This document shows positions 53,576-60,213 of a stretch of 64,000 bases of DNA, in pieces. The translations under genes were made by a program, and so were the position numbers. The stretch lies in the IMG/VR virus record IMGVR_UViG_3300024255_000002; one strand, written 5' to 3'. The number at the start of each line of letters is the position of its first letter. The first letter of the stretch is position 1. The notes beneath the pieces are model-generated. The model was given only the letters and a program-made list of their open reading frames with translations, made no database searches and was not told where the DNA came from. This DNA comes from a virus.

Positions 53576-55015
53576 ATGTTATTATCACAAATGAAAGACT
53601 TTAGTTACGAAGTATTAAATAATACCGTACTGGAGCAATCTTACCTAGACAAATCATTTCAGGTAGGAATATTTAAATCAAAAGACAAAACAATTGATGT
53701 TGTAGGGATTGATTCCAGATGGGACAATACTATGCGTCAAAGTTTCATCAAATCAGTTGCTACTGGTAATGCAGTAACACCTCTAGTCATTGTTGACGCA
53801 AAAGAATGCTTAAACAATGCTGATACTCAAAACGACCAAGAGTATTTTCAATCTATCATTGACAAAGGTTTCAGATACATTGTTGTTGATGGTTGGAATA
53901 GAGTAGTTGCTTTGTTGAAATTCAAAAACAATCTATTTCAGTTTCCGAAAACTAGAAAGATGTTTGTACTTGACAATAACAACAATGAATCGTTTGTAGA
54001 AGTTACACAACCTGTTTCATATTCTACATTGAAAGAGTCAGTAACTAAAAACGAGATCAATTTAGTTAATGCCATTGACAATGCTAAAATATATGTTATT
54101 ATGGTTACAAAGGCAAGTAAGAAAGATATATCTAATCTTTTTTTAAGAGTCAACGATGGTAAAACATTGAACGGCCAAGAAAAAAGAAATGGTATGTTGA
54201 ATGTAGTTGCTGATACTATAAAACTATTGTCAGATCAAAACATTGAGTACATGTCAAAACTGTTTAGTGAGACCGAGATAACAAGATTGAAGTTTGACGA
54301 CTTCATCGCTAACTGTTTACTTGGTTACTCATACAAAAACGAGAAGAATATCTCCGACACTGCTAAAAACAAAATGTATGCAGATGAGTCAGATGATAAT
54401 CCTGCTGTTAAGTTTTTACACAAATTTAGTAAAGACTTTACAGATTTTTGTAAGTTTATCAATGAAAGTAATACCGACAAGATAAACTCAAAAACATTTT
54501 TGTTCTATGATTATTTCATGCTAACAAAATTGCTTGAAGATAAAAACATTGTCATAAAAGATAGAAAACTCTTTTATCAATGGTACAAAGGCTTTGTGAT
54601 TAAGAATATACAAAGTAAAAAGACCTACGATATTGATGATGATGTTTATACATTTGACCGTATGTTAAGAAAGAACAATGCCAATATCATACAATACAGA
54701 ATGAACATGTATGTAAATGATATATACGCTAATCTTCTTAATACAGATGTTATCAATGAATATACACCGAGATCAGACTCGTATCAGAAATATAGATACG
54801 AGTTATGGGCCAAACAAAATGGCTTTGACGCTGTGTCAGGTGAGTCGATACCACTACATGAAATACTTGATGAAAAGTACCATGTAGATCACATTGTGCC
54901 TTTGAGTAAAAAAGGTTCAGACGACATCTCAAATTTGAGATTAGTAAGTAGAGAATTTAATCTAAAGAAATCAAACAAACTTGATGAAGAATTAGATATG
55001 CAATTTTCTGCTTAA
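53576..55015 (+). CDS. DUF262/ParB-like + HNH protein (GmrSD-like nuclease)
   Basis: W.....SFI.S, VVDGWNR, F.RVNDG..L...E.RN; HVDHIVPLSKKGSDDISNLRLV...N.KKSN. Confidence 0.75.
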   Translation: MLLSQMKDFSYEVLNNTVLEQSYLDKSFQVGIFKSKDKTIDVVGIDSRWDNTMRQSFIKSVATGNAVTPLVIVDAKECLNNADTQNDQEYFQSIIDKGFRYIVVDGWNRVVALLKFKNNLFQFPKTRKMFVLDNNNNESFVEVTQPVSYSTLKESVTKNEINLVNAIDNAKIYVIMVTKASKKDISNLFLRVNDGKTLNGQEKRNGMLNVVADTIKLLSDQNIEYMSKLFSETEITRLKFDDFIANCLLGYSYKNEKNISDTAKNKMYADESDDNPAVKFLHKFSKDFTDFCKFINESNTDKINSKTFLFYDYFMLTKLLEDKNIVIKDRKLFYQWYKGFVIKNIQSKKTYDIDDDVYTFDRMLRKNNANIIQYRMNMYVNDIYANLLNTDVINEYTPRSDSYQKYRYELWAKQNGFDAVSGESIPLHEILDEKYHVDHIVPLSKKGSDDISNLRLVSREFNLKKSNKLDEELDMQFSA

Positions 55016-55479
55016 AAAGTCTTTAAATGATCTTCGGTAAGTATAACGAATTTCATATCATGTTTAATACACCAGGCGTTTGCGGTCTCCCACTTACGCC
55101 TGTTGGTCTCATAAGTTAAAACAGCATTTCTATAAACACGGCTACTTCTTGTTTTCTTAACAGGCCGTTGTACCTGATACTTAGGTTTAATCTCAACTAT
55201 TATTTTCTTATAAGTGCCATCTGGTTGCTTATACTTCATGTAGAAGTCAGGAAAGTATCTATGTATTCTATTGTCAACTGATCTATATGGTATTATTAAT
55301 TCTTCACTACCCCATTCAGTGACATTTTCATTCCTATCACACCAATTGGCAAACTTACGTTCCCAACTAGAACGACAGATTATATTTGTAACATCACCTT
55401 TATACTTCTCTGGATTAGTAGGTGTATATTTGCTTTTATATGGTTTTTTATCTATATTTGTTAGTTTCTTAAATCTCAT
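55012..55479 (-). CDS. 4: Head completion protein gp4
   Basis: NPEKYKGD..NIICRSSWERKF, WGSEE, HRYFPDF, VEIKP. Confidence 0.93.
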   Translation of the reverse strand: MRFKKLTNIDKKPYKSKYTPTNPEKYKGDVTNIICRSSWERKFANWCDRNENVTEWGSEELIIPYRSVDNRIHRYFPDFYMKYKQPDGTYKKIIVEIKPKYQVQRPVKKTRSSRVYRNAVLTYETNRRKWETANAWCIKHDMKFVILTEDHLKTF

Positions 55480-55496
55480 ATTATTATTTATTTCAT

Positions 55497-55504
55497 TATA
55501 AATA
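55497..55504 (+). promoter_or_regulatory. Late promoter TATAAATA (gp2)
   Basis: Exact consensus between divergent gp4 and gp2. Confidence 0.7.
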
Positions 55505-55509
55505 TACAT

Positions 55510-56070
55510 ATGGCAACTGTATTTGATAGACTAAAGGACAAAGCAGGAGATTTTAAAAATAGAAAATCTGTTGATTGGTATAGAGCACAGGTTAATAGAC
55601 TTAAAATTAAGACAAATGCAAGTCAATTAATTAGACAAGGCAAATCAAAAGGATCACCAACTGAAGGTAATCTAAATTTGTTTGGTTATAGTCCTAAGTA
55701 TGCCAACACATTAAAATATTATGACGTGTTTCCTCTAGTGTTGCCATTAAAGTTTGTACCTGGTGGGTTTATAGGAATAAATTTTCACTATTTACCACCA
55801 ACTTTGAGATTTAAATTATTAGATATATTACAGCGATATACAAACAGTCCAAGGTTTGAAGAAAACAGTAGATTTGTTGTGTATTACGATGACTTGAAGA
55901 ACTTAAAAATAATCAAGCCGACACTTAAAAGGTATTTGTATGCCAAGGCAACAACTCCTTTTTTGAAGATAAATATGGATGACGCTGCTATTGCAGCCTA
56001 TCTTCCTGTGGCAAGATTTAAGAAAGCCACAGAGCGACAAGTGTGGGCAGATAGTAGGAGGATGTTATAA
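55510..56070 (+). CDS. 2: DNA end protector gp2
   Basis: YYDVFPLV, GINFHYLPP.LR, KRYL, LP.ARF.KA...VW.DSR. Confidence 0.88.
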   Translation: MATVFDRLKDKAGDFKNRKSVDWYRAQVNRLKIKTNASQLIRQGKSKGSPTEGNLNLFGYSPKYANTLKYYDVFPLVLPLKFVPGGFIGINFHYLPPTLRFKLLDILQRYTNSPRFEENSRFVVYYDDLKNLKIIKPTLKRYLYAKATTPFLKINMDDAAIAAYLPVARFKKATERQVWADSRRML

Positions 56071-56322: not shown

Positions 56323-57399
56323 ATGGCAATATTCAGACAAGGTGTAAAAATAGGTGGGTTCGATGTAAGAATAGGATTGCCTAGAGATAGAGGATTTGAT
56401 CCTGTTGAAGCACAAAAACGAGTAGATCAAAGTAGAGCAAGTATCAACAGAAACACCGAAGTCAATAAGTTTAGATCGTTTATTTCTGAAGGTAGTGGAT
56501 TGGCAAGAACAAATCGTTACATGGTAACTATTAACTTTCCTAATAAATTACTTTCACAATCAAATTTAGACCAAGAGTTTGAAGAATATCAAATTGCTTC
56601 AGACTATACAAATTCGTTACACAAAAGTATTAAAGACAGATTGTTTTTTTTCTGTGAAGGTGCCACATTACCAGGTAGAACAATCGCAGATGAAACAAAA
56701 GATGATCTATATGGTCCTGAAAGAAAAATTGCAAGAGGTGTTACCTATGATGATTTAACACTTACATTTTACATGGGACAAGATATGGCCGAACATCAAT
56801 TGTTTAAGTCATGGCAAAACATGGCAGTTAATCCATATACTTACAACGCTAATTATTATGATGAGTATGTTGGATCAATTGATATATTTCCATTAGTAAC
56901 TGTAAAGACAAATCCAGAGTTACAACCACAACCAGTTAATAAAAATATTTCATCAATTGCTGAAAAGGCAATGTCAGTTTTTGGTAAGAGAAGTGAACCT
57001 ACATCAAACAATCAGTACATGGGTCCTATGGCACATGCAACTGTTGGGACTAGTTTTGTTCATGTAATGGAAGCATTCCCAAAAACTATTAGTGATATAT
57101 CAATGAGTTATGGTTCAGCAGATTTAGTAAAATTATCAGTTACGTTTTCTTATAGATACAACTTATCTGCTGCTGATTTGGCACTAGTCAATGAAGGTAG
57201 ATATAATGTTGTACCAGGCAAACTACATGGGAACATTGCTAAAATAGACAACTTAGACCAATATGGTAAGTTTGGTTCATTAATAAGAAAATTACCACCT
57301 GATATTAGAAGAGCAGGCCGAGACGTTGTCAACATAGCAAAAACAAGATTCCCAACAGGTAAGATATTTGGTGGCAGAGTAGTGCCTCCATTCTTCTAA
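56323..57399 (+). CDS. 54: Baseplate tail-tube initiator (gp54/gp19-like)
   Basis: GLARTNRY.V, CEGATLPG, TLTFY, YYDEY, EAFPK, L.VTFSY. Confidence 0.7.
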   Translation: MAIFRQGVKIGGFDVRIGLPRDRGFDPVEAQKRVDQSRASINRNTEVNKFRSFISEGSGLARTNRYMVTINFPNKLLSQSNLDQEFEEYQIASDYTNSLHKSIKDRLFFFCEGATLPGRTIADETKDDLYGPERKIARGVTYDDLTLTFYMGQDMAEHQLFKSWQNMAVNPYTYNANYYDEYVGSIDIFPLVTVKTNPELQPQPVNKNISSIAEKAMSVFGKRSEPTSNNQYMGPMAHATVGTSFVHVMEAFPKTISDISMSYGSADLVKLSVTFSYRYNLSAADLALVNEGRYNVVPGKLHGNIAKIDNLDQYGKFGSLIRKLPPDIRRAGRDVVNIAKTRFPTGKIFGGRVVPPFF

Positions 57400-57439: not shown

Positions 57440-58135
57440 ATGGCAATACCGAAGATTGTGACACCTACTTATGAATGTGAGTTACCATCTACAAAACAAA
57501 AAATCAAATTTAGACCGTTCTTAGTTAAAGAGGAAAAAGTTATGTTAGTGGCATTAGAAGCCAATAACGAAACTGCCATCCAAGAAGCTTTAATTCAAAT
57601 TGTGTCTAATTGTACAGACAATAAAATAGATGTAGAAAAACTACCTATATTTGATTTTGAATATTTGTTTTTGAAGATACGATCAAAGTCAGTAGGTGAG
57701 ATTGTCAAATTAAAACTTAAATGTCCAGATGATGATAAGGTTACAGTTGATTATGAGTTAAACCTCGATGAAATAAAAGTTGAGATTGATTCTAAATTCA
57801 AGTTTGAAGTACCTTTTACAGAATCATACGGCGTTGTATTAAGATATCCTACAATAAGAGAAGTGGCAAAAGATGATGAAACAACCATCCTAAGTCTATC
57901 TCTTATTAAAGATTGTCTAAAAATGATATACAATGGCGATGATACTTACTATCGAAAGGACATAACAGACGAGGAGTTTAATGAATGGATTGATACATTA
58001 ACTAAGGATCAGTTTGATTTACTTGTTAAATGGTTCAAATCAATACCTAAAATTGAACATGTTATTAAATATAGTAATCCTAAGTCTGGTAAAGAGTTTA
58101 GTTTGAAGTTGTCTGGAACTAAAGATTTTTTTTAG
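57440..58135 (+). CDS. 26: Baseplate hub assembly protein gp26
   Basis: LPST...IKFRPFLVKEEK, FDFEYLFLKIRSKSVGE. Confidence 0.9.
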   Translation: MAIPKIVTPTYECELPSTKQKIKFRPFLVKEEKVMLVALEANNETAIQEALIQIVSNCTDNKIDVEKLPIFDFEYLFLKIRSKSVGEIVKLKLKCPDDDKVTVDYELNLDEIKVEIDSKFKFEVPFTESYGVVLRYPTIREVAKDDETTILSLSLIKDCLKMIYNGDDTYYRKDITDEEFNEWIDTLTKDQFDLLVKWFKSIPKIEHVIKYSNPKSGKEFSLKLSGTKDFF

Positions 58136-58326
58136 TTTCCCTCAACCATGACACGCTAGAAAATTACTATAGAACTAATTTTGCATTGATTCATCATCAT
58201 AAATATTCATTAGATGAATTAGAGTCAATGGTGCCGTGGGAGAGGGAGATATACATAGACCTTCTATTAGAACACTTACGAGACGAGAAACAAAGACTCG
58301 ATGAAGCAAAAAAAAGTAGAGGATAA
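58126..58326 (+). CDS. 51: gp51-like baseplate hub assembly segment in the -1 frame (no own start; probable frameshift extension of gp26)
   Basis: Hand translation LVSLNHDTLENYYRTNFALIHHHKYSLDELESMVPWEREIYIDLL...*. Confidence 0.75.
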   Translation, partial: FFLVSLNHDTLENYYRTNFALIHHHKYSLDELESMVPWEREIYIDLLLEHLRDEKQRLDEAKKSRG

Positions 58327-58328
58327 AC

Positions 58329-58622
58329 ATGGAAGAACAAACTAAAAAAGTAAATTTAGAGTTAGAGATTGATACGTCAACTGTAGACTCTAGTAAAAAC
58401 AAATATCAAGGTTTAATTGACCTTGCAAAGGCTGTTGACGCATGGAGAATATTTCCTAGATTGTTTTTAACAGTTTACATTATCTTATTATACAAATGTG
58501 TAATATGGTATATGAATTTACAAGCACCAACTATGGAACAAAGTGGGTTAATCAGTATCGTTGTAGGTGCTGGCGCTGCCTGGTTTGGTTTATATACAGG
58601 AACAAGTAAGAGTAAGAAATAA
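58329..58622 (+). CDS. Two-TM small membrane protein
   Basis: DAWRIFPRLF, two hydrophobic helices. Confidence 0.65.
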   Translation: MEEQTKKVNLELEIDTSTVDSSKNKYQGLIDLAKAVDAWRIFPRLFLTVYIILLYKCVIWYMNLQAPTMEQSGLISIVVGAGAAWFGLYTGTSKSKK

Positions 58623-58668: not shown

Positions 58669-60213
58669 ATGGTAAGATTAAAACGATTTCAGACATTGTT
58701 AAAAGAAAAAAGAGAAAAATTTAGTGGTGAGTCTGATCGTGTTGCAATTGCTGAAGCAGGAACACAATTTTCTAAAAATGTTCAGATAAAAGTTGATGAA
58801 CAATTTTCAAAAGAAAACAAAACAGGTGATATAAAATTTGATAAGGTATCAAGTGCTGTAAAAAACATTCCAGAACAACTTAGAGGTGATATTGAAAACC
58901 TTGAAGATGGATCCTACAATGACTTAGTTAGATTTATCAGAAAATATGAAAGACTTTTAAATGAAGTACAAGGTGGAAGATTGTATGATAAGAAAGAACA
59001 AGAATATATCAAAAAAACAGTTGAACCAGTACTACTTGAAATAACAAATTTAAAAGGTCCTATTGCTCGGGCTGCATTTGCCTTTGAAGACTTTAAATCA
59101 CAATTCAAACCTCTAAAATTAGCAGACAGATTTTTAGGTGATCTTCCTATCGTAGGCGATATGATAAGAGAGAGATTGCAAGCAAAAGGTGAGGCAGATA
59201 GACTTGCTAAATCGACAGGATTGAGAGCTGCAAAAGAAAGAACTAGAGGTGAACTAAAAGAGGCTGCTGAAACGAGAAAAGGTATTTCTAAACCAGAATC
59301 ATCAAGTAGTTTTTCAGACGACACATCATTAGGTAGTGTTGGTGATGAACTTGGTGATCTTGCTAAAAATGTTGGTACGGGAAAAGTATCCGAAGAGTCA
59401 CAAAAAGAACAGGCAAATAAAGACCAAAAACAAACTAATTTATTTGAGTTGATTGCTGAAAATACACTTGAGTCAAAATACTTACTAGAGGAATTATTAG
59501 AGGCATATAAAGATGAAAACGAAGGCATGGGTGAATTACTTGACACAGGAAAAAATGTTGCCATGGGTGCTGGAGGTGCTGCTGCTGGTGCTGGTGGTCT
59601 ATTTGGACTCAACAAACTAAGACAGAAATTCTTTGGAAAAGGTAAAGGTGCTGATGTAGCTGGTAAGGCTGCTTCAAAAGGTGGTGGTAAAGCGTTAGGT
59701 AAAACCGCTCTTAAATCTGTTATTAAAAAAATACCTATCCTCGGTTTGGGTGCAGGACTATTATTTGGTGCTCAACGATTAATGGCAGGTGATGTTACTG
59801 GTGCAGGTATGGAAGTTGCCTCAGGTGCTGCTAGTCTGGTTCCTGGTGCAGGAACGGCTGCTAGTGTTGCCATAGACGCTGCTAGTGCCGCTAGAGATAT
59901 GAAGAACGCAGAGAGAGAAGTGGATGACACAGTTGCACAGGCAACAACTGAAGCGATTTCTGACACAAAAGGGCAAAGTGTAGGATTAGGTCAAGTTTAT
60001 CAAATAAATGCAGATCAAGTTATGCTTAAGGCAAACTCAATGAAACAGTTACAGAATGAGAACGATATAGCAAAAAGCTACATGACTAAAGGAATGGGCA
60101 ATATGCAAAATAACACAGTATTAAATCAAGTTACAAACACTGCCAAGAGTACTTTTATGGGACCTAGATTATCATCATCTAATCCTAGAAACATTACTAA
60201 ATCACCATATTAA
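58669..60213 (+). CDS. Tape-measure/gp29-like protein
   Basis: Helical, Gly/Ala-rich KKIPILG...GDVTGA segment; lies before gp48; start re-called at MVRLK. Confidence 0.55.
   Translation: MVRLKRFQTLLKEKREKFSGESDRVAIAEAGTQFSKNVQIKVDEQFSKENKTGDIKFDKVSSAVKNIPEQLRGDIENLEDGSYNDLVRFIRKYERLLNEVQGGRLYDKKEQEYIKKTVEPVLLEITNLKGPIARAAFAFEDFKSQFKPLKLADRFLGDLPIVGDMIRERLQAKGEADRLAKSTGLRAAKERTRGELKEAAETRKGISKPESSSSFSDDTSLGSVGDELGDLAKNVGTGKVSEESQKEQANKDQKQTNLFELIAENTLESKYLLEELLEAYKDENEGMGELLDTGKNVAMGAGGAAAGAGGLFGLNKLRQKFFGKGKGADVAGKAASKGGGKALGKTALKSVIKKIPILGLGAGLLFGAQRLMAGDVTGAGMEVASGAASLVPGAGTAASVAIDAASAARDMKNAEREVDDTVAQATTEAISDTKGQSVGLGQVYQINADQVMLKANSMKQLQNENDIAKSYMTKGMGNMQNNTVLNQVTNTAKSTFMGPRLSSSNPRNITKSPY

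Follow-up and report, generated by a model that had tools for sequence, protein, structure and literature searches.

A probable programmed -1 ribosomal frameshift linking gp26-like and gp51-like reading frames in a putative tail assembly chaperone gene of a marine T4-like phage

Background

Bacterial -1 frameshift cassettes are known in which the slip is assisted by a structured RNA stimulator, such as the hairpin of dnaX and the three-way junction of IS911. The closest described system in phages is the gpG/gpGT pair of lambda. [quoted passage not shown]

In T4, gp26 and gp51 are both listed as chaperones of hub assembly, and gp51 is absent from the particle (Leiman et al. 2010, PMC3004832). 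The passages of PMC10885494 that concern T4-like phages refer to a short and a longer fused gene and to short and long TAC forms, citing Vladimirov, Gautam and Davidson (Virology 2022;566:9-15, PMID 34826709). Similarly, poly-T -1 slippery sequences in the TAC-N genes of T4-like phages are mentioned in a passage of PMC12846349 (2025), which cites Vladimirov et al. 2022. Going by these passages, the principle of a gp26/gp51 chaperone pair with a poly-T frameshift in T4-like phages appears to have been published already in 2022, and the value of the current analysis would therefore lie in a careful new example and in the evidence for a selected RNA structure downstream of the slip site. A search of full-text literature on gp26/gp51, baseplate-hub, T4 tail-chaperone and cyanophage frameshifting found no report of the slip. 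An earlier sequence-only reading of the DNA considered here had called such a frameshift not part of the textbook T4 picture. This is a fair description of the textbook, although the chaperone link and the poly-T signals are credited to the 2022 paper in the passages cited.

In the current analysis we have studied a stretch of 64,000 nucleotides of the IMG/VR record IMGVR_UViG_3300024255_000002, referred to below as the window, in which a gp26-like gene is followed in the -1 frame by a gp51-like coding region. From the sequence, this arrangement very probably represents a conserved programmed -1 ribosomal frameshift at U_UUU_UUU that would yield two forms, of 231 and 295 residues, of a T4-type tail assembly chaperone. 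We regard frameshifting, which the sequence-only reading had also proposed, as by far the best reading because the slippery heptamer is invariant and in phase, the -1 frame region is coding and has no start of its own, the encoded peptide continues the homology to T4 gp51 across the junction and an RNA structure downstream of the site appears to be under selection. The predicted frameshifted gene of the window is unannotated and the case for it is well supported.

Gene organisation of the locus

The window belongs to an uncultured marine T4-like phage with a G+C content of 32%. Among cultured phages, DNA comparison places it nearest to the Pelagibacter phages Mosig and HTVC008M and to cyanophages of the Kyanoviridae; the nearest record (G001, a 37%-complete fragment) is without PF12322. 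The features of the locus are given below.

55510-56070: DNA end protector
56323-57399: tail-tube-like protein, called 'baseplate tail tube initiator' in relatives
57440-58135, + strand: gp26-like gene, short form (TAC-N), 231 codons plus TAG, with matches to PF12322 and phrog_150
58126-58132, + strand: slippery heptamer T_TTT_TTT, in the zero-frame X_XXY_YYZ phase
58133-58135, + strand: zero-frame stop TAG, immediately 3' of the heptamer
58132-58326, + strand: gp51-like C-terminal extension in the -1 frame, 64 codons plus TAA
58135-58150, + strand: 5' arms of the predicted stimulatory RNA domain, GUUUCCCUC and CCAUG
58235-58250, + strand: 3' arms, CGUGG and GAGGGAGAU, within the codons of the PWERE motif
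58329-58622, + strand: 97-residue hydrophobic protein, matching phrog_10198 (unknown function; 4.1e-20)
58669-60213, + strand: putative tape-measure-like gene, 514 residues from ATG 58669
60251 onward: gp48-like cap, gp53-like protein and further baseplate genes

The gp26-like protein matches the Pfam family PF12322 (T4_baseplate; 7.7e-61) with its residues 9-231, which cover positions 2-218 of the 219-position profile, and also matches phrog_150, described as 'baseplate hub' (1.5e-62). A tblastn search inside the 64-kb window found no second, separate gene for a long form of the chaperone.

One gene of 97 codons lies between the chaperone gene and the tape-measure-like gene. Its protein is conserved at this place in the pelagiphage-like relatives, with a small syntenic gene in Mosig and in HTVC008M, and in T4 the corresponding place is occupied by gp27 and gp28. 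The protein encoded at 58669-60213 has no match in Pfam, and BLASTP finds no similarity between it and T4 gp29. Its identity as a tape measure protein is suggested by position, through synteny with the gene of HTVC008M that bears the annotation 'putative tail tape measure'.

Two further genes have been observed upstream of the DNA end protector. The region 53576-55015 (+ strand) encodes a protein of 479 residues with a C-terminal HNH endonuclease domain (PF13395, 3.3e-11), and the convergent region 55012-55509 (- strand) a protein of 165 residues with a TnsA-like endonuclease N-terminal domain (PF08722, 4.6e-19). The TnsA-like gene occupies the position annotated as 'head completion protein' in the relatives.

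Slippery site and its conservation

The gp26-like reading frame ends with GAT (58124-58126) followed by TTT TTT TAG, the stop codon being at 58133-58135, and contains a run of eight T at 58126-58133. The -1 frame is closed by TAA at 58120-58122 and is then open as far as the stop at 58324-58326. Its first possible starts are TTG at 58186, which is codon 20 after the heptamer, and ATG at 58228, which is codon 34. The sequence-only reading had placed the end of the gp26-like gene and the slippery T_TTT_TTT, the limits of the -1 frame and the first starts (no ATG before 58228 and only the TTG at 58186) at these same positions, all of them correctly.

This strand of the window has 40 runs of six or more T, of which three are of eight T. 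A T run by itself is therefore not rare in such an A+T-rich sequence and the significance of the site comes from the comparison with its relatives. A second + strand run of eight T is found at 56644-56651, where it encodes Phe residues inside the tail-tube-like gene.

For the comparison 71 related loci were considered, comprising 66 loci of IMG/VR found with the gp26 protein, four annotated phages and the window itself. All 71 have an in-phase T_TTT_TTN heptamer, with T runs of 6-8, over a range of gp26 identities to the window of 26-91%. A zero-frame stop is found 0-8 codons past the heptamer in every one of them, mostly at 0 or 1 codons, and every one has an open -1 frame of 61-68 codons that encodes the same conserved peptide. 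The same arrangement has been identified in four distant phages, namely Acidovorax phage ACP17, Vibrio phage F86, Rhizobium phage RHph_I9 and Pseudomonas phage pf16. The poly-T and the -1 phase, whose conservation in gp26/gp51 pairs had been named by the sequence-only reading as a way of checking its proposal, are kept in all of these loci.

The heptamers of the 56 unique junctions, in which the four distant phages are included, are TTTTTTT (39), TTTTTTC (11), TTTTTTA (5) and TTTTTTG (1), the last being the T_TTT_TTG of Rhizobium phage RHph_I9. The G+C-rich genomes among the distant phages still retain GAT TTT TTC. Synonymous sites are also fixed at the heptamer. The 47 unique junctions examined for this have, without exception, T as the last base of the preceding codon (GAT, AAT or AGT) and TTT as the first Phe codon, whereas the use of T-ending codons elsewhere in the same genes is 0.67-0.84.

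The -1 frame extension and its relation to T4 gp26 and gp51

The peptide of the -1 frame (P0001) has been found to match phrog_634, referred to as 'baseplate hub assembly catalyst' (3.4e-27). A second match is to positions 231-280 in the profile of phrog_150, which has 282 positions and in which the gp26 body ends at position 232. These two matches and the alignment to T4 gp51 described below bear out the gp51-like character assigned to the peptide by the sequence-only reading.

In the 56 unique junctions the open stretch of the -1 frame extends back from the heptamer by a median of 7 codons, and in 43 of them there is no ATG before codon 20. The stretch of 20 codons ahead of the first ATG in most relatives has no start and is kept as protein, the entropy by -1 codon position being 0.93, 0.72 and 1.44 bits, which is the pattern of a coding sequence. 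The long form predicted from the sequence would comprise 231 + 64 = 295 residues, with the junction ..KDFF|LVSLNHD...

In T4, residues 1-201 of gp51 and residues 2-205 of gp26 each cover the whole PF12322 profile (3.9e-52 and 5.2e-63, respectively), and their identity to each other is 20% (E 2e-6). Residues 200-244 of T4 gp51 align with residues 3-48 of the -1 peptide of the window (E 7e-6), the alignment beginning at the Phe of the slip site, and tblastn aligns the two as well. As both T4 proteins contain the full PF12322 domain and the C-terminus of gp51 aligns with the -1 peptide, gp26 can be regarded as the short and gp51 as the long paralogue.

A similar organisation is seen in the Aeromonas phage Aes508 (Straboviridae). 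Its gp51, of 249 residues, has PF12322 over residues 2-198 (1.7e-45) and a C-terminal extension that runs to the end of phrog_150 and is matched by the -1 peptide of the window, while its gp26, of 200 residues and divergently transcribed, has PF12322 only. The window shares with T4 gp26/gp51 the PF12322 body, the gp51-type C-terminal extension and the logic of a short and a long form. The difference is that T4 and Aes508 encode the two forms in separate, divergently transcribed genes, whereas the window has one gene with a predicted frameshift. On these sequence comparisons the single gene of the window would give a pair of the T4 gp26/gp51 type by means of the -1 slip.

RNA structure downstream of the slippery site

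The region 58126-58270 folds with -38.9 kcal/mol, which corresponds to a z-score of -4.14 against dinucleotide shuffles, none of the 200 shuffles being as stable. The minimum-energy fold contains two stems, 58135-58143 with 58242-58250 and 58146-58150 with 58235-58239, that enclose a domain of about 100 nt. The G+C-rich core of the 5' arms begins 6 nt past the heptamer. The pairing of TCCCTC (58138-58143) with GAGGGA (58242-58247), which the sequence-only reading had put forward as a possible stimulator, is present in this fold.

RNAalifold, applied to 33 diverse junction sequences, gave no single consensus structure. The fold of the window was therefore evaluated on the relatives as a named structure, and structure in general by synonymous permutation. 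When the named structure is placed on the alignment, 67% of the cells are paired, compared to 36-52% with the pairing partners slid, and 40 cells show a double change, compared to 9-20 when slid. Compensatory U-A/C-G exchanges are found at two pairs, both sides of which are synonymous third positions.

Since one of the sequences compared had itself supplied the named structure, a control was added in which synonymous codons are permuted within each sequence. This permutation preserves the protein and the codon content of each sequence. The results for 37 loci are given below.

126 nt after the heptamer: window z -5.4 (0 of 150 permutations as stable); mean z -2.5 over 37 loci; 28 of 37 below -1.64
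Control of the same size inside gp26, nearer: window z -0.02; mean z -0.67; 7 of 37 below -1.64
Control of the same size inside gp26, farther: window z -0.55; mean z -0.65; 10 of 37 below -1.64

In 9 of the 37 loci there is no significant structure, and in 27 of the 37 the first 19 nt pair with the region coding for PWERE. That an RNA structure downstream of the slip site is under selection is well supported by these sequence comparisons, and such a structure would presumably stimulate the slip.

The organisation resembles that of dnaX and IS911 in having a stable RNA structure only a few bases past a slippery heptamer. The structure of the window is a multi-branched domain whose long-range closing stem spans about 100 nt. 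Unlike in dnaX and IS911, both arms of the stem are located in conserved codons (LSH and PWERE) and no Shine-Dalgarno-like stimulator is evident upstream in the window. As a tentative suggestion, in which we have less than even confidence, the slip may be driven by an unusual long-range RNA domain of this kind, with a closing stem pairing the LSH codons just past the slip site with the PWERE codons about 100 nt further on, with peptide and RNA signal co-evolving and with the stimulator being common to much of the T4-like chaperone family. A scan of 57900-58500 against Rfam gave chance matches only.

Proposed mechanism and comparison with lambda G/GT

According to the mechanism proposed here, most ribosomes would stop at the TAG at 58133 and produce the short form of 231 residues (TAC-N, like T4 gp26). 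A minority would slip back by one base, with two Phe-tRNAs on UUU UUU within U_UUU_UUU (58126-58132), and read the -1 frame to 58326, giving the long form of 295 residues (TAC-NC, like T4 gp51). Likely stimulators of the slip are the adjacent stop codon and the stable RNA domain, whose closing stem (58135-58150 with 58235-58250) would start 2-6 nt downstream. By analogy with lambda G/GT, both forms would act as chaperones of the tape measure protein in the initiation of the baseplate hub and the tail tube, and would be absent from the virion. The sequence signature and its conservation, the homology to T4 gp26/gp51 and the selected RNA structure are shown by the comparisons, whereas the slip and its rate, the part played by the structure and the chaperone function are inferred from them.

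The locus is similar to lambda G/GT in several respects. The overlapping frames are related by -1, a canonical heptamer is located near the end of the first frame, the site is just upstream of the putative tape-measure region and the predicted long form consists of the short form with an extension added. In its structural matches, which are middling, the N-terminal domain also leans towards the HK97 tail assembly chaperone, as described below. The window protein differs from lambda gpG in having no sequence similarity to it and in its body, which is about twice as long (231 residues) and has extra domains. The heptamer of the window is U_UUU_UUU, compared to G_GGA_AAG in lambda, and, unlike in lambda, a small gene separates the chaperone gene from the tape-measure-like gene.

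The fold was analysed on an AlphaFold2 model of P0054, a natural fused form, built with an alignment of 50 sequences (pLDDT 79.9, pTM 0.72). The model has a confident alpha/beta body at residues 1-225, and an extension that is helical and less confident (pLDDT 49-81). In an exhaustive alignment of the model to 48,161 PDB chains the top three matches are all on residues 1-94, namely YqbN (3klu, Z 7.3), the tail assembly chaperone of HK97 (2ob9, Z 7.2) and 3fgx (Z 6.9), with 84-85 residues aligned at an rmsd of 3.6-3.8 A; the scores are below Z 8 and middling. YqbN is a member of the XkdN-type tail assembly chaperones. The next match has a Z of 5.6 and is on the helical tail. Foldseek gave no match in the PDB at an E-value of 1e-3 or better, and nothing was found when the PDB sequences were searched with the family profile. 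With scores of this order, the model leans towards a tail assembly chaperone fold for the N-terminal domain of the gp26-like protein and is to be counted as such a leaning rather than as proof.

The logic of the analogy with lambda G/GT drawn by the sequence-only reading holds, and its support from the fold is weak. As regards the context, the gene of 97 codons is situated between the extension and the putative tape-measure-like gene, the identity of which derives from synteny and the annotation in HTVC008M. If the proposed reading is right, the frameshifted short and long chaperone pair of long-tailed phages extends to the T4 lineage, and the two separate genes of T4 would represent a derived or an alternative state.

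Alternative readings

The likeliest of the alternatives involves no recoding. The gp51 part would then be a separate small protein, translated from the internal start TTG 58186 or ATG 58228 or by re-initiation past the gp26 stop. Separate gp51 genes of 44-57 residues are indeed annotated in the records of Mosig, HTVC008M and P-SSM2, and those of Mosig and HTVC008M cover only the last 44-45 codons of the extension. In the GenBank record of S-WAM2 (L004), on the other hand, the conserved -1 extension at 2202-2393 is left without any annotated gene. Hosts such as SAR11 use weak Shine-Dalgarno signals, so the absence of such a signal at gp51 says little.

In the Vibrio, Rhizobium and P-SSM2 lineages an ATG is found 4-5 codons past the heptamer, so that a small gp51 with an initiation of its own is possible in them. 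This ATG overlaps the gp26 stop in Vibrio phage F86 (TAATG; L081, about 2001-2020) and in Rhizobium phage RHph_I9 (TGATG; L082, about 2001-2020), in both cases four codons past the heptamer, and in these two lineages the frameshift product could be accompanied by one of coupled re-initiation. The sequence-only reading had counted against its own proposal any homologs that lack the slippery site and have their own SD and ATG; the site is kept in all of the loci compared, and an early ATG does occur in the three lineages.

For the window itself, a separate gp51 would leave 20-34 conserved codons untranslated, though these vary as a coding sequence of the -1 frame does. It would also leave unexplained the invariant in-phase heptamer with its fixed synonymous sites, the homology to T4 gp51 that runs through the junction and the RNA structure under selection. 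We therefore consider translation without recoding to be improbable.

Somewhat less probable still is transcriptional slippage, in which the RNA polymerase would add one U on the run of eight T and the edited mRNA would be translated normally into the fusion. Homopolymer runs of about nine can provoke slippage of the polymerase in bacteria, and the window has eight consecutive T. Many relatives, however, have six T only (AGT TTT TTC, AAT TTT TTC or AGT TTT TTA) in the same arrangement. The X_XXY_YYZ phase, which is always kept, is not needed by a polymerase, and the selected structure in the downstream RNA fits slippage by the ribosome.

Preference is accordingly given to ribosomal frameshifting, which has consequences for the annotation of these phages. 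In the public records of the marine T4-like phages Mosig, HTVC008M, P-SSM2 and S-WAM2 the 'gp51' is either truncated or missing. Under the ribosomal frameshift the correct annotation would be a joined, frameshifted CDS, and the gene concerned is a core one for the tail of viruses that are very abundant in the ocean.

Fused in-frame forms in the databases

The search for relatives of the gp26-like protein gave 1856 database matches, and short forms make up nearly all of the best 120 of the 1856. Only seven fused proteins, of 279-300 residues, were recovered with the extension, each being one sequence on one contig. The fused singleton P0054 carries exactly the predicted type of junction, ..DFF followed by LITLSHENLE... 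These in-frame singletons are most simply explained as homopolymer miscalls or rare variants.

Homopolymer runs are error-prone and the rare fused proteins (P0054 and six others) do exist, but a miscall that split a single ORF of the true genome of the window is hardly credible, since the T runs of the 47 unique junctions, from independent metagenomes and cultured phages, are 6, 7 or 8 long with the same -1 arrangement in all, which a miscall cannot have caused in common, and since the identical run of eight T is present in three independent assemblies (L005-L007) that are 91% identical to the window.

A group of about 50 other database proteins (P0133-P0183), of 161-219 residues, has also been observed. 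Some of them are assigned to the newer Pfam family PF28602 and others have no Pfam annotation, and in most the match is confined to the last 46-68% of the extension. These proteins may represent the gp51 part read through into a downstream gene, or fragments.
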